This document shows positions 1 to 63,689 of a DNA stretch of 64,000 nucleotides, piece after piece; position 1 is the first letter of the stretch, and every line of letters starts with the position of its first letter. Both the position numbers and the translations under genes were made by a program. A model generated the notes under the pieces. It did not search any database and was not told where the DNA came from. It worked only from the letters and a program-made list of their open reading frames with translations. Source of the stretch: Desulfurococcaceae archaeon (GTDB lineage Archaea; Thermoproteota; Thermoprotei_A; Sulfolobales; Desulfurococcaceae); assembly GCA_038824035.1 (NCBI GenBank), contig JAWBBW010000001.1:14187-78186 (forward strand), given 5' to 3'.

Positions 1-1
1 C

Positions 2-739
2 ATGATTGCAAGGCTATATATGAACGTGTTCGGTTACAGTGATGAAGACCTCTCATTATGGCCTCTCAAAATGCATGAATATGCGAGTTACAACCCGTTT
101 GCACAATTACCGAGAAAGACGAGTTTAGAAGAGATAATGAAAAGCCCCATGATAGCCGAGCCCATAAGGTTATTCCATGCCGCGCCCATAGGTGATGGAG
201 CGGCAGTGGTATTGTTGGTCAGAGGAGAAGAGAGGGCCAGGGAAATAGCCAGGAACAGTGGGAAAGACGTGTTAGTGGAGTTATCCGGGATAGGACTAGC
301 AACAGACAGCGTGGACATAGCGTCTAGGAATAATATACTATCCATGGAGTCCACTACCAGGGCTGCACAAGAGGCGTTGAAACAAGCAGGCATAGGCATA
401 AAAGACATTGATTACGCAGAAGTCCACGACGCCTTTCATATAACGGGCTTCATGGCCTTGGAAGACCTTGGATTCGCGCCAAAGGGGATGGCACCCAAGT
501 TGTTCAAAGAAGGGTGGTTTCAAAAGGGATCTAAGCCCGAGGTCAATTTCAGCGGTGGATTAAAGGCACGCGGTCACCCAGTGGGTGCTACAGGTATATA
601 TCAAGTCGTTGAGTCAACTATGCAATTGCGAGGTGATTTCCCAGGCTATAAGGCCAGTGAACCGGAAATAGCCCTTGTGCACAACATAGGGGGTGTGAGT
701 ACAATAGCCTCAGTGGCTGTATTGAAACGGGTGAAGTAG
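2..739 (+). CDS. thiolase-like acetyl-CoA C-acyltransferase, C-terminal part (5' end lies outside the window)
   Basis: ORF open to the window edge. C-terminal thiolase-fold motifs are present (NFSGGLKARGHPVGATG, VHNIGG). Confidence 0.7.
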   Translation: MIARLYMNVFGYSDEDLSLWPLKMHEYASYNPFAQLPRKTSLEEIMKSPMIAEPIRLFHAAPIGDGAAVVLLVRGEERAREIARNSGKDVLVELSGIGLATDSVDIASRNNILSMESTTRAAQEALKQAGIGIKDIDYAEVHDAFHITGFMALEDLGFAPKGMAPKLFKEGWFQKGSKPEVNFSGGLKARGHPVGATGIYQVVESTMQLRGDFPGYKASEPEIALVHNIGGVSTIASVAVLKRVK

Positions 740-2293
740 TTGAGTAGTCATGAGGAGTTATTGAAGAAACTAAGCGAATATAGGGAGAAATCAATTATAG
801 GCGGTGGCAAAGACAAGATAGAGCAACAGGTTAAGAAGGGCAAGTTATGGGTCAGGGATAGGATCAATAGATTACTAGACCCTGATACCTTCGTGGAATT
901 GCGGTGGATGGGGATAACAAGATCTACTTATTTCGGCCTGGATAAGATGAAATTCTATGGAGACGGGGTTGTAACGGGGTATGGGAAAATAGATGGTAGA
1001 TTAGTACATGTATATGCACAGGATTTCACAGTGATGGGGGGTAGTATAGGAGAGATGCATGCAGAGAAAATCGTCAGGACAATAGAGATGGCCATTAAAA
1101 CAGGGACCCCGGTTATTGGTCTCTACGACTCCGGTGGTGCTAGGATACAGGAGGGTGTGGCATCACTACATGGTTGTGGAAAATTGTTCTACGCCAATGT
1201 GAAGGCAAGCGGAGTTATACCCCAAATAGCCGTGATTCTCGGGCCATGTGCAGGTGCGGCATCATATAGCCCAGCCCTCATGGATTTCACGATCATGGTT
1301 AAGGGTGCATACATGTTTATAACAGGCCCCGAGGTGGTCAAAGCGGCCACAGGGGTGGATGTCACATTTGAGCAACTTGGCGGTGCAGATGTTCATGCAT
1401 CTACAAGTGGTGTCGCTCACTTTGTAGCGGAGAATGAGGACGAGGCATTCATGCTTGTCAGGAAACTCCTTTCATATCTACCTAGCAATAACATGGAGGA
1501 TCCTCCATATATACCAACCGATGACCCTGTGGATAGGAAACTGGAGGAGCTATATGAAATAGTACCGCTTGATCCCATGAAACCCTTCGATGCGAAAAAA
1601 GTCATCTCATTGATAGTTGACAATGGGGATTTCCTAGAAGTACATGAACACTATGGCACATCCAGTATAGTGGGTTTTGGCAGAATCGGCGGATACACTG
1701 TGGGCATAGTTGCTAATCAGCCAGCAGTTAATGCTGGCGCAATAGACATAGATGCCAGTAATAAGATAGCGAGATTCGTCAGATTCTGTGATGCATTCAA
1801 CATACCCATAGTGACACTCGTGGATACACCCGGTTTCATGCCCGGAGTTGACCAAGAACATGGAGGCATAATTAAGCATGGAGCAAAGATCCTCTATGCA
1901 TATGCTGAGGCAACGGTGCCTAAGATCACAGTGATCATGAGAAAAGCGTATGGTGGGGCATACATAGCAATGGGCAGTCTATCATTGGAAAGCGATATAA
2001 ACTACGCATGGCCTACGGCTGAGATAGCTGTGATGGGCCCTGAAGGCGCGACCCGTATATTATACAGGAAAGAGCTGGAGAAAGCATCTGATCCCGAGCA
2101 GTTCTTCAAAGAGAAGTTAAAGGAATATAGAGATCTCTTCGCAAATCCATATAGAGCGGCTGAACTAGGCTATATAGACGATGTAATCGACCCGGCACTA
2201 ACCAGGTTAAAGATATATGAAGCCCTAACTGTGCTGGTCAATAAAAGAGATATGCCAAGTGTCTTCAGAAAACACGGCAATATCCCATTGTGA
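740..2293 (+). CDS. pccB: acyl-CoA (acetyl/propionyl-CoA) carboxylase, carboxyltransferase subunit
   Basis: 517 aa, full-length similarity by eye to the PccB / methylmalonyl-CoA decarboxylase alpha family (GGSIGEMHAEKI, GPCAGAASYSPAL, RKAYGGAYIAM). TTG start directly after the upstream stop. Confidence 0.9.
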   Translation: MSSHEELLKKLSEYREKSIIGGGKDKIEQQVKKGKLWVRDRINRLLDPDTFVELRWMGITRSTYFGLDKMKFYGDGVVTGYGKIDGRLVHVYAQDFTVMGGSIGEMHAEKIVRTIEMAIKTGTPVIGLYDSGGARIQEGVASLHGCGKLFYANVKASGVIPQIAVILGPCAGAASYSPALMDFTIMVKGAYMFITGPEVVKAATGVDVTFEQLGGADVHASTSGVAHFVAENEDEAFMLVRKLLSYLPSNNMEDPPYIPTDDPVDRKLEELYEIVPLDPMKPFDAKKVISLIVDNGDFLEVHEHYGTSSIVGFGRIGGYTVGIVANQPAVNAGAIDIDASNKIARFVRFCDAFNIPIVTLVDTPGFMPGVDQEHGGIIKHGAKILYAYAEATVPKITVIMRKAYGGAYIAMGSLSLESDINYAWPTAEIAVMGPEGATRILYRKELEKASDPEQFFKEKLKEYRDLFANPYRAAELGYIDDVIDPALTRLKIYEALTVLVNKRDMPSVFRKHGNIPL

Positions 2294-2313
2294 TGAATTA
2301 AAACATTTTTCTA

Positions 2314-2847
2314 TTATGATTGCCTTATCCTGGCTATTTTATCCCCTTTGTTGATACTCATACCTGGCTTCACATAGATTTCTTCTATCACACCTTTCAA
2401 ATGCGACTTCACCTCTATGATCATCTTCATGGATTCCAATAAAGCGATCACATCATCAGTGTTAACTGCCATGCCCTTAGTTACCTTGATCTCAACGACC
2501 CTCCCAGCTATGGGTGAAACTATGACGCCTGGTTCTTGGATGATTGGTGCCTGTTTCTTCTTCACTTCTTTGCTGACAGATACCGGGGTTATTTTCTTGA
2601 CATAGGAATGCAATAAACCTATGTACATGCCTTGATCTCCATATATTATCACTGGGTATTCCTCGTTGTTTATCTCTACAATATATCTCCCATCACTGAT
2701 GTTCCTCACCTTGATCTTATATATGTTTCCAGTCGTCAAATCCTTTATCAATATATTATCCTTGTTCTTATCCAGCACTTCCAGTTCTATCTCATTCCCA
2801 AAGAGTGTTAGAACCCTGTAAAGCCTTGACAAGGTTTCACTCACCAT
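2314..2847 (-). CDS. accB: biotin carboxyl carrier protein (C-terminal biotinyl domain)
   Basis: C-terminal biotinyl/lipoyl fold with biotinylation motif LESMKMIIEV. The N-terminal ~100 aa is unrelated. Confidence 0.8.
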   Translation of the reverse strand: MVSETLSRLYRVLTLFGNEIELEVLDKNKDNILIKDLTTGNIYKIKVRNISDGRYIVEINNEEYPVIIYGDQGMYIGLLHSYVKKITPVSVSKEVKKKQAPIIQEPGVIVSPIAGRVVEIKVTKGMAVNTDDVIALLESMKMIIEVKSHLKGVIEEIYVKPGMSINKGDKIARIRQS

Positions 2848-2850
2848 TGA

Positions 2851-2899
2851 TCAGCAACGCCAACCCTCCTCATCTTTCAGACACGGGTTCGCTCATCAC
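2851..2899 (-). ncRNA. box C/D sRNA (49 nt)
   Basis: Minus strand reads GTGATGA-GCGAACCCGTGT-CTGA-AAG-ATGAGGA-GGGTTGGCGTTG-CTGA. C, D' and D boxes are perfect, C' has one mismatch, and both spacers are exactly 12 nt. A TATA-like box lies about 26 nt upstream. Confidence 0.8.
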
Positions 2900-2925
2900 T
2901 ACCTAGGTATTAATTAAACCAGGGC

Positions 2926-2933
2926 TATTAAAA
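2926..2933 (-). promoter_or_regulatory. TATA-like box (TTTTAATA on the minus strand) for the box C/D sRNA / accB transcript
   Basis: Centred about 26 nt upstream of position ~2903, which is 4 nt before the C box. Confidence 0.45.
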
Positions 2934-2999
2934 GTCACTGAACACTATCTATATAAGTTATCTATAAAGGATTCTTCTCAGAGATATAGAGTTGGGGCG

Positions 3000-4091
3000 A
3001 TGTTTTTGATAGATTTCCATCAAGTAAAATTAAGGAGAGAGGAATTCTGGGGCAATAACCCTGTTTACAGAGCTATTTATGAGAGATTAGTGAAACAGGG
3101 ATATCACCTAATAGGCCTACTCGGCGCTGTCAAGAGATGTCATTGGTCAAGAGAGGCCATTATTAGGCATAGATTCTGCTATAAATGCCTATGGTATGGT
3201 ATAGAGAGCCATAGATGTATACAGATGACCCCCGTCGTGGCATGGTGTTGGAATAGATGTCTTCATTGCTGGAGAATACAACCAGAGGATATAGGGATGC
3301 ACTGGGATGATACTAAGCCACCTGTGATAGATGATCCAGAGGTATTGGTCGAGGAGAGTATAAGGGTTCATAGACAAATCATGGCTGGTTTCAAGGGTAA
3401 TCCAAATGCCGATCAAAAGATGGTTGAGGAGGCGATAAATCCCCGTCACGCTGCTATAAGCCTGGCCGGAGAGCCCACTTTATACCCATTGCTCAGCGAT
3501 CTGATCTACGAATACCATAAAAGAAATATAACGACATTTCTCGTAACACGTGGAACAAGGCCAGATATTATCAAGAGCCTCGTTGTCGAGCCGACTCAGC
3601 TATATATAAGCATGGAGGCATGGGATAAGAGGTCATATGAGTATTTCAATAGGCCAATAGTTCCACGGGCATGGGAGCTTTTCCAAGAGACACTCGAATA
3701 CATACCCAGCGTTAGATCACCAGTCACGTTCAGGATAACATTGGTAAAGGGCTTTAATGACAATGAAGAGGCCATACGCGGTTTCGCAAAGATCATCGAA
3801 AAAGCACAGCCCACCTATGTCGAAGTAAAAGCATACATGTTCCTAGGTGTTAGTAAGGGCAGATTGAATAGGGCCAATATGCCATCGCACTCAGAGGTGA
3901 GAGAATATGCCAAGAGATTAAGCGATCTAGCGGGCTATATGTTACTCAGCGAATCTATTCCAAGCAGAGTTGTATTGTTGAGTAGGGTAAAGAACCCGAT
4001 TAGGCATGGTAAAGGATGTCCGGATGGAGTTAAGCATCCCGAGAAATATGCAAATGTCATAACAGAGGAATACGAAGAAGCCTATTCATAG
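3000..4091 (+). CDS. taw1: tRNA 4-demethylwyosine synthase (radical SAM, TYW1/Taw1)
   Basis: Signature CYKCLWYGIESHRCIQMTPVVAWCWNRCLHCWR, including the CX3CX2C cluster. Length of 363 aa fits. Confidence 0.85.
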   Translation: MFLIDFHQVKLRREEFWGNNPVYRAIYERLVKQGYHLIGLLGAVKRCHWSREAIIRHRFCYKCLWYGIESHRCIQMTPVVAWCWNRCLHCWRIQPEDIGMHWDDTKPPVIDDPEVLVEESIRVHRQIMAGFKGNPNADQKMVEEAINPRHAAISLAGEPTLYPLLSDLIYEYHKRNITTFLVTRGTRPDIIKSLVVEPTQLYISMEAWDKRSYEYFNRPIVPRAWELFQETLEYIPSVRSPVTFRITLVKGFNDNEEAIRGFAKIIEKAQPTYVEVKAYMFLGVSKGRLNRANMPSHSEVREYAKRLSDLAGYMLLSESIPSRVVLLSRVKNPIRHGKGCPDGVKHPEKYANVITEEYEEAYS

Positions 4092-4098
4092 TAGAGCC

Positions 4099-4854
4099 TT
4101 ATTCTTGAATACAAGTCTCCTTCTCAAACCTGAGGCCTATTAAACGAGCATTCCTAACTATGCCTATCTCCATGCCGAGTGTAAACACGATTGATTCTAT
4201 CTCACCGCCTCCCTTAACAAGTTTGTTGCAAACCCTTGTATGGCCATCTATTACGTAGTACTCATCGCCGAATTGATATGTCAATATTGGATCAACACTT
4301 GATCTCCTATTCAAAGCCCCCTCAGCCTTATATAAAACCTGAGTAGGGATCAGCCTTGTTATCTCTAGTTTGTCAAACCACACCTTGGCCAATGTCTTAT
4401 GCACTAGTTCGAGGAACCTTATAATATTGACCATATGTCTCCATGTCAGGAGTTCTAGGGGTGTGTCTAATGGATTTAGAAGTTTTACATCGATAATGCT
4501 GTACTGGTTTATCGGCCTATATGATGGTATGTTGATTACGAAAGCCGGTGTTTTCTCTCTGATCCATGCATATACTAGTGCGCGGTGATGGCCATCTATT
4601 ACATAGAGTTTACCGGCATGTCCCATAATGACTATGATTGGCGCGGTGTATCTCTCCAATAAGGTTTTCTTTAGGACTAGGCCTAGTTTATCGCTTTCAA
4701 GGTATTCCTGAGTGAAAAGCAGTGATGTTGGATCAATATATCTCTCCCCGATCAATCTTGCATCAGGGTATTTATCCCTTAGAAATACCAGGAAATGCTC
4801 CAATCTCGTTATAACGTTTCTCCTAGTAGCTAGGATTAATCTATGGTGATTCAA
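4099..4854 (-). CDS. protein with two tandem ParB/sulfiredoxin-like domains
   Basis: Two repeats of the same module: LLFTQEYL...LYVIDGHHRAL and LIPTQVLY...YYVIDGHTRVC. TTG start overlaps the upstream gene by 14 nt. Confidence 0.6.
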   Translation of the reverse strand: MNHHRLILATRRNVITRLEHFLVFLRDKYPDARLIGERYIDPTSLLFTQEYLESDKLGLVLKKTLLERYTAPIIVIMGHAGKLYVIDGHHRALVYAWIREKTPAFVINIPSYRPINQYSIIDVKLLNPLDTPLELLTWRHMVNIIRFLELVHKTLAKVWFDKLEITRLIPTQVLYKAEGALNRRSSVDPILTYQFGDEYYVIDGHTRVCNKLVKGGGEIESIVFTLGMEIGIVRNARLIGLRFEKETCIQE

Positions 4855-5698
4855 CGAACCTGTATTCTCTTCCAGCGTGAAGAACCACCATTGCCTCCTT
4901 TCTCAATTCCTCTAACAATATCTTCTCGAAATGTGTTAATTTATCCAATTCAGCTGTCCTGATGGGGAACTTGGATCGGAACTCCTTGTAGAACTCGGCA
5001 TCCACCACTAGTGAACCTATTTTCACGATTTTCCCCTCTATGATTAACCTATCGAGGATATTGCCCAATTTGCTTAACGCCTCATTATAACTCATCACGG
5101 GTAATTCCATGAATACATGCTTATGATCTGCTTTTAATCTATTTCTCTTAAAGGCCTCGAGTGCTTTCACCATCTCCTCCATCGATTTCTCGAGTTTTAA
5201 TATTCTATCTTCAAGTGTTCTTACCTTGTCAACAAGCTTGTTGAATTCATCGGTATTAATACAAACGCGTTGTTGTTCGGTGCCTGTTTCAACGCTCTGA
5301 GGTATACCTGGTTCTTTTTCCATAGCCTTCTCGAGTTGATTTGCAGGCTGTGATGGGATCTCCTCTTTCCCTGCTTCAAATGACTTTTCCATCGTCTTTT
5401 CTCCAGATATATATTCGAGGAGTTTGATGCCTCTTCCCGTCAATATATATCCTCTCCCCGTCTTCTCCAAGTAACCGGAGCTTTTAAGCCTATACACAAC
5501 CTCCCTGATCCTGGCTACGCTTATATTAAGCATGCTTGATAACTCTTTAAGAGAAAGACCTGGATTATCCCTTAGGATCTCTAGTACTTTGAAAGTCAAC
5601 GTCTTTTTACTCACTATTATCTCCTTGGCCCAGAATATCTTATAGATTCTATTGTTTATAATTTTTATAATCCTTGTAATCTCTGATATATCTAGCAC
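4841..5698 (-). CDS. winged-helix DNA-binding protein with acidic linker and coiled coil
   Basis: N-terminal wHTH (LEILRDNPGLSLKELSSMLNISVARIREVVYRLKSSGYLEK) and a heptad-like segment (VRTLEDRILKLEKSMEEMVKALE). The ORF-track start is GTG. An alternative GTG at 5614 is preceded by AAGGAG. Confidence 0.6.
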   Translation of the reverse strand: MLDISEITRIIKIINNRIYKIFWAKEIIVSKKTLTFKVLEILRDNPGLSLKELSSMLNISVARIREVVYRLKSSGYLEKTGRGYILTGRGIKLLEYISGEKTMEKSFEAGKEEIPSQPANQLEKAMEKEPGIPQSVETGTEQQRVCINTDEFNKLVDKVRTLEDRILKLEKSMEEMVKALEAFKRNRLKADHKHVFMELPVMSYNEALSKLGNILDRLIIEGKIVKIGSLVVDAEFYKEFRSKFPIRTAELDKLTHFEKILLEELRKEAMVVLHAGREYRFVESP

Positions 5699-5700
5699 TG

Positions 5701-6417
5701 GTGGGTGCTGTGAGTAAGTTATTTGATGAGGAAACAGTTAATGAATTAAAAAGGATATTTTCATCACTCCGGAGGGATTTGAAAGACATATTAGTGGTTG
5801 AGGAGACAAGTGAACATGGCATAGTAAATAAGTGCCCAACATGCCCAGAAGCGGTGGAACTTGCTCGCGAACTCAATTGGATTAGTGATGGTAAACTAGT
5901 TTTTGAAATCCTCTATGGAATCGATAAGGCGAAGAACATTAGACCCAGGTATTTGCCAGCATTCATATATGATACAAAGGCCAGGAACATTAGGTATTAC
6001 GGATTGCCCAGTGGCCAGGAATTCGCACCATTCATATATGTTCACAAGTATATATCAGATGGGGCCAAGTTAAGCCCAGATCTAAGCGAAGAGATAGAGT
6101 CCATTGAAACACCACTACACATTAGGATTTTCGTTACACCTGAATGCCCGTATTGCCCAATAGTGGTCGATTTCTTGAACCAGGCTGGTGTGATCAATTC
6201 AAACCTACTCATTGATACCATTGAGGCGTTTGAACACCCCTATGAAGCTGATAAGTACATGGTTCAATACGTCCCCTTCATAGCTATAACCAGGATAGAG
6301 GACTATGAAATATATGGAGCACGCCCTGTTGAAACCATACCAGGTTATTTACCTCCAGAGGATATTGTCGTGGTGTTGAAGAGGGCTGAAAGGAAGATCA
6401 GGCAAATGTATAGATAG
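5701..6417 (+). CDS. pdo: protein disulfide oxidoreductase (two thioredoxin-fold units)
   Basis: Two CXXC motifs (CPTCPE and CPYCP) about 110 aa apart, typical of thermophile PDO. GTG start is uncertain. Confidence 0.8.
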   Translation: MGAVSKLFDEETVNELKRIFSSLRRDLKDILVVEETSEHGIVNKCPTCPEAVELARELNWISDGKLVFEILYGIDKAKNIRPRYLPAFIYDTKARNIRYYGLPSGQEFAPFIYVHKYISDGAKLSPDLSEEIESIETPLHIRIFVTPECPYCPIVVDFLNQAGVINSNLLIDTIEAFEHPYEADKYMVQYVPFIAITRIEDYEIYGARPVETIPGYLPPEDIVVVLKRAERKIRQMYR

Positions 6418-13644: not shown

Positions 13645-13698
13645 GTGATGATTTACCCCCGGACCCGAATAGTTAATGACGAAAACATACCCGACTGA
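13645..13698 (+). ncRNA. box C/D sRNA (54 nt)
   Basis: GTGATGA-TTTACCCCCGGAC-CCGA-ATAGTTA-ATGACGA-AAACATACCCGA-CTGA. C and D boxes are perfect, C' has one mismatch, D' is CCGA. The D guide is exactly 12 nt. Confidence 0.7.
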
Positions 13699-63639: not shown

Positions 63640-63689
63640 ATGATGAGCGCTCGGGTTGGCAGATCAGTGAAGATGGTTTTGAGTACTGA
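63640..63689 (+). ncRNA. box C/D sRNA (50 nt)
   Basis: ATGATGA-GCGCTCGGGTTGG-CAGA-TCA-GTGAAGA-TGGTTTTGAGTA-CTGA. C and D are perfect, C' has one mismatch, D' is CAGA, and the D spacer is exactly 12 nt. TTAAATAA (63605-63612) sits at about -26. Confidence 0.7.

Follow-up and report, generated by a model that had tools for sequence, protein, structure and literature searches.

A Predicted Box C/D sRNA Gene Conserved Across Nearly All Desulfurococcaceae and Its Linkage to accB

The DNA immediately upstream of accB, the BCCP gene, in a Desulfurococcaceae archaeon carries a series of short boxes in the order and at the spacing of a box C/D sRNA. This raised the questions of whether the element is a guide RNA gene or a part of the accB leader, what its guides recognize, and which promoter serves the accB mRNA. 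Box C/D sRNAs are the archaeal counterparts of snoRNAs, and they assemble with L7Ae, Nop5, and fibrillarin to guide 2'-O-methylation of other RNAs. We analyzed the locus within a window, by which we mean the whole 64,000-nt stretch of DNA under study (contig C1, 14187–78186), from an assembly of 1.33 Mb in 29 contigs with 41% G+C. Near-identical loci were found in hot-spring MAGs labelled Desulfurococcaceae. Coordinates are those of the window unless a contig is named.

Read from 2899 to 2851 on the minus strand, the sequence is GTGATGA / GCGAACCCGTGT / CTGA / AAG / ATGAGGA / GGGTTGGCGTTG / CTGA. In RNA terms, a C box GUGAUGA (2893..2899) is followed by the D' guide GCGAACCCGUGU (2881..2892), a D' box CUGA (2877..2880), a D'–C' spacer AAG (2874..2876), a C' box AUGAGGA (2867..2873), the D guide GGGUUGGCGUUG (2855..2866), and a D box CUGA (2851..2854). 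Between C and D' and between C' and D, the guide spacers had a length of exactly 12 nt both here and in all the homologues read, and the sole box mismatch of the window sRNA was in C'. The box order, coordinates, two 12-nt spacers, and single mismatch given in the initial annotation were therefore all read as claimed, and the element has all the structural features that define archaeal box C/D sRNAs. The exact pattern of boxes and spacers had a single occurrence in the 64-kb window and none in 100 dinucleotide-preserving shuffles. A relaxed genome-wide scan returned 7 loci when up to one box mismatch was allowed, compared with 0 in 5 Markov shuffles, and 21 when up to two were allowed, compared with about 0.6 per shuffle.

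At Rfam gathering thresholds the window yielded just one tRNA and nothing else. In a permissive Rfam scan, 14 archaeal C/D families aligned end to end over 2848–2906, all below their gathering scores; the best family was sR5 with 32.2 bits and E = 7e-6, and since this falls short of the gathering score of 40, the sRNA belongs to an uncatalogued family. We know of no published sRNA catalogue for Desulfurococcaceae. The genome encodes the core proteins of the sRNP, namely fibrillarin (PF01269, E = 1.6e-103), Nop5 (PF01798 and PF21572), and L7Ae (PF01248); the fibrillarin and Nop5 genes are adjacent, and the L7Ae gene lies elsewhere in the genome. The minimum-free-energy fold of the leader was uninformative (z = -2.0). 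Metatranscriptomes X10, X13, and X14, from a study whose data include the DNA of this organism, gave zero reads on window positions 1–6000 or 2200–3400 in the 3–5% of each run that was sampled. A search for RNA runs from relatives, including cultured types, returned none.

When the minus strand from 2960 to 2800 (161 nt) was used as a blastn query against 40 relatives, 15 other genomes aligned over little beyond query positions 61–110, which correspond to the 49-nt RNA. The mean pairwise identity was 88% for the RNA, as against 30% in each 49-nt flank, and by part it was 83–100% for the boxes (C, 98% among 14 genomes; D, 100%), 88% for the guides, and 43% for the D'–C' spacer, which appears free to vary. 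Across the 16 aligned sequences, boxes and guide cores were fixed, and the variable columns were the box-adjacent guide positions, the second base of D', and the 3-nt spacer. A sequence-only model of the RNA was built from this alignment and searched in the genomes. It gave a single strong match per genome in 48 Desulfurococcaceae genomes, representing at least 17 genera; outside the family its matches were all weak and for the most part partial. The C and D boxes were near-invariant, a few homologues having one change such as AUGAAGA, CAGA, or CCGA; the two exceptions to CUGA at the D box among the homologues read were CAGA in genome G027 and CCGA in genome G025. The D' box was CNGA across the family and the consensus of the C' box was RUGAAGA. 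The core CGAACCCG of the D' guide was near-invariant family-wide, one sublineage having the variant CGAAUCCG, and the family core of the D guide was GGU(C/U)GGCG. In other genera the D' guide stayed GCGAACCCGUGU, the D guide was mostly GGUCGGCGUUA, and the D'–C' spacer ranged from 3 to 30 nt, often as a G+C-rich hairpin. Fixed guide cores together with a variable D'–C' spacer are the signature of a trans-acting guide sRNA. By these comparisons, the sRNA is an old gene common to nearly all Desulfurococcaceae.

A TATA-like element, TTTTAATA, was read at 2926..2933 (-). Archaeal TATA boxes are centered about 26–27 nt upstream of the start site, and by this rule the predicted 5' end is A2904 or G2903, giving a putative 5' tail AGGUA (2900..2904) ahead of the C box; the Rfam C/D models align from 2902–2903. 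The element is centered about 26 nt upstream of the 5' end at 2903–2904, so that the position assigned to it in the initial annotation was correct. TATA-like boxes (CTTATAA, CTTATTA, TTTTAATA, and similar) kept a distance of about 24–36 nt from the C box, on its upstream side, throughout the 16 genus-level homologues and in the majority of the further genera that were read. Divergent from the sRNA on its upstream side lies a gene for a Taw1-like radical SAM wyosine enzyme (3000..4091, plus strand; Pfam Wyosine_form and Radical_SAM), which had the same position and orientation at all 16 genus-level loci and in four further genera. Taken with the conservation of the RNA, these data strongly support the view that 2904–2851 (-) is a real box C/D sRNA gene of about 50–55 nt, whose expression is predicted. 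They support just as strongly the earlier description of a textbook C/D sRNA with its own TATA element.

The longest open reading frame downstream of the sRNA (2314–2847, minus strand) encodes a Biotin_lipoyl domain (Pfam, E = 3e-14), and it was identified on this basis as BCCP/accB; its translation contains the SMKM biotinylation motif, and a carboxyltransferase gene converges on it. The first start codon of this frame, ATG at 2845..2847, lies 3 nt past the D box, with TCA between. The initial annotation had placed the accB start here. The TCA and the ATG were indeed read, but the short spacing is peculiar to this genome: ATG 2847 had no counterpart in 12 relatives, in which the conserved start (M-[P/S]-[K/R]-x-[Y/F]-[K/R]-V) lies 11–24 nt past the D box. 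In 10 of these 12 an in-frame stop precedes the conserved start, and the frame opens just 0–2 codons ahead of it. The homologue of the conserved start in the window is TTG at 2830..2832, 18 nt past the D box, which reads M-S-R-L-Y-R-V and leaves a coding region of 2314..2829 after the TTG. The start codon in relatives was TTG, GTG, or ATG, the last in the three genomes shown for one sublineage.

A Shine-Dalgarno (SD)-like GGUGA (2841..2845) is located 8 nt upstream of TTG 2832. In the relatives, purine-rich SD-like motifs (GAGGUUGAUCC, GAGGUGGA, GGUGAG, GAGGU, and similar), complementary to the 3' ends of same-genus 16S rRNAs (...GGAUCACCUCC and ...GGAUCACCUCA), were found mostly 5–10 nt upstream of the conserved start. 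Where the spacing differed (loci L019 and L023), the motif moved with the accB start and not with the D box. These comparisons suggested that accB is more likely translated from TTG 2832 than from ATG 2847. The essentially leaderless accB mRNA of the initial annotation is the less likely alternative, since the conserved start and its GGUGA- or GAGGU-type motif favor a leadered, SD-dependent mRNA.

We then considered what the two guides might recognize. The assembly of this genome contains neither the 23S rRNA nor the 3' half of the 16S rRNA, a contig ending inside the 16S gene, and the rRNA tests consequently relied on genomes of the same genus. The sense strands of same-genus 16S and 23S rRNA genes, with spacers and introns, were scanned together with the partial 16S gene of this genome; full sets came from two genomes (G010 and G012) and partial sets from G006, G003, and others. 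Neither guide had 9 or more contiguous Watson-Crick pairs with these rRNAs, and the only matches were G-U-rich and at background level. In the same scan, most of the other predicted sRNAs of this genome reached 9–11.5 contiguous pairs, at sites identical in two genomes. As these calibration sRNAs match rRNA and the guides of the window sRNA do not, the latter is not a standard rRNA guide, and the scan indicated that the targets of the conserved guides are not in 16S or 23S rRNA. The D' core occurs in the sense orientation in the 23S rRNA of relatives (CGAACCCGUG; L006, L007, L004, L003, and L008), within a hairpin that pairs it, as 3' strand, with the 5' strand CCACGGGG. The corresponding 23S segment CCGAACCCGUGG was rejected as a target: it is identical in sense to the D' core, and the opposite strand of the hairpin offers 6–7 bp only. 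A weak look-alike of the D guide lies 46 nt from this segment. These resemblances are probably a coincidence. As a separate observation on these rRNA genes (L027–L031 and L006–L007), several 16S genes span 1.8–2.6 kb and the 23S gene about 3.4 kb, compared with models of 1478 and 2987 positions, and these oversized genes point to several rRNA introns in the genus.

The best target lead for the D' guide was the T-stem of tRNA. The core CGAACCCG is the complement of C50–G57 (CGGGUUCG) in several tRNAs, with G51 at the N+5 position. In tRNA-Ser(GGA), tRNA-Ser(CGA), and tRNA-Cys the duplex would extend over C48–G57, with 8 Watson-Crick pairs, a G-U pair at 49, and one more Watson-Crick pair; in one species (G008) a C in the guide faces G49 and extends the run to 10 contiguous Watson-Crick pairs, compared with 8 in most species. 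Within the genus the D' core varies by three substitutions, each of which keeps pairing: U to C (facing G49), C to U (facing G53), and A to G (facing U54). The shuffle test for the D' guide gave 31 of 1000. Genus g30 has a U-to-A change at position 10 of the D' guide; a compensatory change was sought there, and no matching tRNA T-stem was found. For the D guide, positions 23–33 of tRNA-Gly, tRNA-Thr, and tRNA-Arg gave weak matches of 7–8 Watson-Crick and 3–4 G-U pairs with G26 at N+5, and the shuffle test gave 176 of 1000, so that tRNA G26 is a lead only. G26 guides have been predicted for tRNA-Val and tRNA-Gly of Pyrococcus, where m2,2Gm26 has been observed (PMC7668247), and Table 1 of PMC6313347 gives the 2'-O-methyltransferase for m2,2Gm26 as unknown. 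Unambiguous tRNA guides encoded by this genome form 10–11 Watson-Crick pairs, whereas the tRNA matches of this sRNA have at most 8 contiguous pairs in this genome, plus G-U pairs.

Among other stable RNAs, the D guide formed 11 contiguous Watson-Crick pairs with nt 62–72 of the SRP RNA of this genome (C14:7745–8029, minus strand), with G65 at N+5; the G at position 1 of the D guide, which extends this duplex, is rare among the homologues read. The probability of such a match by chance was estimated at about 0.005–0.01 for about 5.5 kb of stable RNA. As a conserved target, SRP RNA was rejected: the site falls in a hypervariable stretch of helix 5 and was complementary in 0 of 25 relatives, and for this reason it cannot explain the conservation of the D guide. 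We regard it as a species-specific lead. Scans of 5S rRNA and RNase P RNA as targets, and of the neighboring Taw1, accB, and pccB mRNAs as cis targets, gave nothing. A search of six further genomes for the perfect complement of the family-consensus D guide (AACGCCGACC) found no recurrent site besides the antisense strand of the sRNA gene.

The initial annotation had expected complements of the guides in rRNA or tRNA; with no rRNA complement of at least 9 bp and borderline tRNA matches, the outcome was close to the one that it had held to count against an sRNA. The conservation of the element nevertheless outweighs the missing rRNA target, because conserved guides that are orphan on both sides are documented: a class of conserved dual-orphan sRNAs has been noted in Pyrobaculum (PMC6009581, section 17). 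By the usual criteria, and as judged from its sequence, the sRNA is such a conserved dual-orphan.

Several other predicted sRNAs of the genome were compared with the element at accB. In 6 of the 21 predicted C/D sRNAs, an ORF on the same strand starts at most 25 nt past the D box, and a second case pointed out in the initial annotation, at 13645–13698 (+), is indeed among these six. This second sRNA reads GTGATGA-13 nt-CCGA-7 nt-ATGACGA-12 nt-CTGA; GGT comes next, ahead of the ATG that opens a 200-aa ORF. The D' guide of this sRNA forms 10 contiguous Watson-Crick pairs at the same site in two same-genus 23S rRNAs. In at least three of the six, an SD-like GGAGGU or AGGUG comes immediately behind the D box (C2, 16 nt; C22, 11 nt; C1:27831, 3 nt). 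A third candidate in the window, at 63640–63689 (+) (C1:77826–77875), has two box mismatches, and its D' guide forms 9 Watson-Crick and 2 G-U pairs with a 23S site common to two same-genus genomes. Outside the window, a perfect-box sRNA at C2:141425–141476 (+) has a D guide with 11 Watson-Crick pairs to tRNA-Val(CAC), placing the wobble base C34 at N+5, and a D' guide with 11 Watson-Crick pairs to the intron region of the intron-containing pre-tRNA-Thr(CGU). As to the tRNA genes themselves, two intron-containing tRNAs called tRNA-Ser by ARAGORN (C5:6963–7073 and C6:60115–60220) have anticodon loops CUUGUAA and CUCGUAG, which identify them as tRNA-Thr(UGU) and tRNA-Thr(CGU), respectively; the ARAGORN tRNA-Stop(tta) at C7:9951–10040 is likely an intron-containing tRNA-Gln.

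The linkage of the sRNA to accB was much narrower than the distribution of the sRNA. By tblastn, accB was downstream of the sRNA at 13 of 16 genus-level loci, and beyond this genus it stood behind the sRNA only in genus g24, other genes being the neighbors elsewhere. Since this arrangement is confined to two genera, the sRNA would be the older, independent unit and accB would have moved in behind it. The gap between the D box and accB (3–18 nt here and 11–24 nt in relatives) contained neither a TATA-like element nor oligo-T at any accB-linked locus, and the position required for an accB TATA box is occupied by the D' and C' boxes. The lack of such elements makes a shared sRNA promoter the most economical reading, and accB probably shares the sRNA promoter in this genus and the one other. 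Of the earlier proposal of one promoter for the sRNA and accB, this part was retained, and the leaderless mRNA is the less likely part.

As a working model, transcription would start about 4–5 nt before the C box from the TATA promoter of the sRNA itself and run on into accB, generating an sRNA–accB precursor. L7Ae, Nop5, and fibrillarin would assemble on the C/D and C'/D' motifs, and cleavage or trimming just past the D box would then free the sRNA thus protected. The remaining mRNA would be translated from TTG 2832 by means of the GGUGA just downstream of the D box, and the two 12-nt guides would place 2'-O-methyl groups on other RNAs. If the repression exerted by L7Ae at kink-turns is a guide (PMC5539422), an sRNP bound to a still unprocessed transcript should hinder the ribosome-binding site beside it. 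We consider it highly probable, on the sequence comparisons above, that the locus is a C/D sRNA gene with its own promoter, behind which accB is co-transcribed, with the sRNA excised and the mRNA read from TTG 2832. Counting against this explanation are the zero metatranscriptome reads, the lack of an rRNA match of 9 or more contiguous pairs for either guide, the short tRNA matches, and the lack of a terminal stem around the C and D boxes, both here and among the homologues read.

Other explanations of the locus differ in how much of the evidence they leave unaccounted for. Because the boxes are short, box-like words might simply have come to lie side by side, but given that none of the 100 shuffles contained the pattern and that the element is conserved across the family, we regard the chance of this as negligible. 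It is also very improbable that the element is a cis-acting accB leader, namely a structured 5' UTR or kink-turn with the look of a C/D sRNA but without guide function in trans. The finding that neither guide has a convincing conserved methylation target would fit such a leader; however, the element and both guide cores are kept in at least 15 genera without a downstream accB, no accB was found downstream at 3 of the 16 genus-level loci (one of them broken by an assembly gap), and exact 12-nt spacers combined with a variable D'–C' spacer are typical of a guide sRNA. Conservation in genera where accB is located elsewhere thus argues that the sRNA is not an accB-specific leader. Two separate transcription units, with the sRNA transcript terminating at the D box or shortly past it and accB transcribed from a start site of its own, seem quite unlikely. 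Archaeal promoters can be weak and hard to recognize, and one for accB might have escaped notice, but just 3–18 nt separate the D box from the candidate starts, and the position 26 nt upstream coincides with the D' and C' boxes (CUGAAAGAUGAGG), a stretch that resembles a TATA box in none of the homologues. Moreover, the loci without accB have a short T-run or T-rich stretch after the D box, whereas the accB-linked loci have no oligo-T there.

If the sRNA is thus co-transcribed with accB and excised, there remains the question of whether the sRNP also controls translation. L7Ae, Nop5, and fibrillarin bound at the C/D kink-turn might block the ribosome, so that BCCP synthesis would be tied to sRNP assembly or to 3' processing of the sRNA. 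The D box is followed by GG(U/C/A) in 10 of the 13 accB-linked loci, forming CUGAGGU-type motifs, and in most of them the SD-like motif begins 0–6 nt past the D box. With GG directly after the D box in these 10, the ribosome-binding site abuts the kink-turn that L7Ae would bind. L7Ae represses translation from an SD-masking kink-turn in Sulfolobus acidocaldarius (PMC5539422), and the same idea has been raised for sRNAs at mRNA 5' ends (PMC6009581, section 25). On the other hand, the accB linkage is confined to two genera, the spacing from the D box to the start codon is not fixed (3–24 nt), and simple excision explains the same data, so that such control is a tentative possibility. A combined reading, which we think unlikely, is that the mRNA captured the promoter of an ancient guide RNA gene and that BCCP synthesis depends on the packaging of the sRNA by L7Ae, Nop5, and fibrillarin or on its cutting, a dependence that would arise because the accB SD motif abuts the D-box kink-turn. 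Separately, the guides may serve ribose methylation of tRNA at G51 and possibly at G26.

The preferred reading, an independent guide RNA gene with accB transcribed behind it, can be set beside known systems. With the archaeal box C/D sRNAs (Sulfolobus sR1–sR60, Pyrococcus snoPyro_CD, and the Pyrobaculum families of Lui et al. 2018, PMC6009581), the window sRNA has in common the C, D', C', and D boxes, the 12-nt spacers, a length of about 50 nt, a variable D'–C' spacer, conservation confined to boxes and guides, and a genome that encodes L7Ae, Nop5, and fibrillarin; it differs from them in that neither guide has an rRNA target even though both are fixed in at least 17 genera. In Pyrobaculum aerophilum, the D guide of sR64 is predicted to target the T-stem residue G51 for methylation in 16 tRNA families (PMC6009581, section 15). 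The window sRNA resembles sR64 in having G51 at N+5, through its D' guide, so that the two are likened by predicted target and not by sequence; in most species this D' guide forms a run of only 8 contiguous Watson-Crick pairs, lengthened to 10 in one.

Co-transcription and excision of sRNAs that head ORFs have been described (PMC6009581, sections 24–25; PMC7994747, section 9), and Tripp et al. [quoted passage not shown] As these sources outline them, sRNAs of category 1 in Lui et al. 2018 and those described as promoter-hijacking by Tripp et al. 2017 share with the window sRNA a position just upstream of an ORF on the same strand without a separate promoter between, and a common precursor is likewise predicted here. 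Compared with those accounts, the window sRNA does not overlap coding sequence and has its own conserved TATA box, and the usual case seems reversed: the older partner here is the sRNA, whose promoter the mRNA appears to have borrowed. In S. acidocaldarius, L7Ae represses the l7ae and nop5-fibrillarin mRNAs through a kink-turn (Daume et al. 2017, PMC5539422). Those leaders and the present one both have a kink-turn-forming element beside the SD motif in the 5' leader; there it is a dedicated UTR kink-turn, whereas here it would be a complete guide sRNA with a putative regulatory role. The arrangement of an sRNA before an ORF, co-transcription, and possible interference by L7Ae are thus already in the literature. 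Particular to this locus are the uncatalogued family, the conservation to family depth with two fixed guides, and the position of the sRNA, rather than the mRNA, as the apparent older owner of the promoter.

For the Desulfurococcaceae, the analysis adds an uncatalogued and unusually deeply conserved C/D sRNA family, corrects the likely start codon of accB, and provides a clean natural example of an essential metabolic gene located behind a guide-RNA promoter. The wider interest lies in what selects two guide sequences that are fixed across a whole family. If the leads to tRNA G51 or G26 are true, they would help to assign orphan ribose methylations in the tRNAs of hyperthermophiles, and if BCCP synthesis does depend on the packaging or cutting of the sRNA, the synthesis of a carboxylase subunit would be tied to the state of the RNA-modification machinery.
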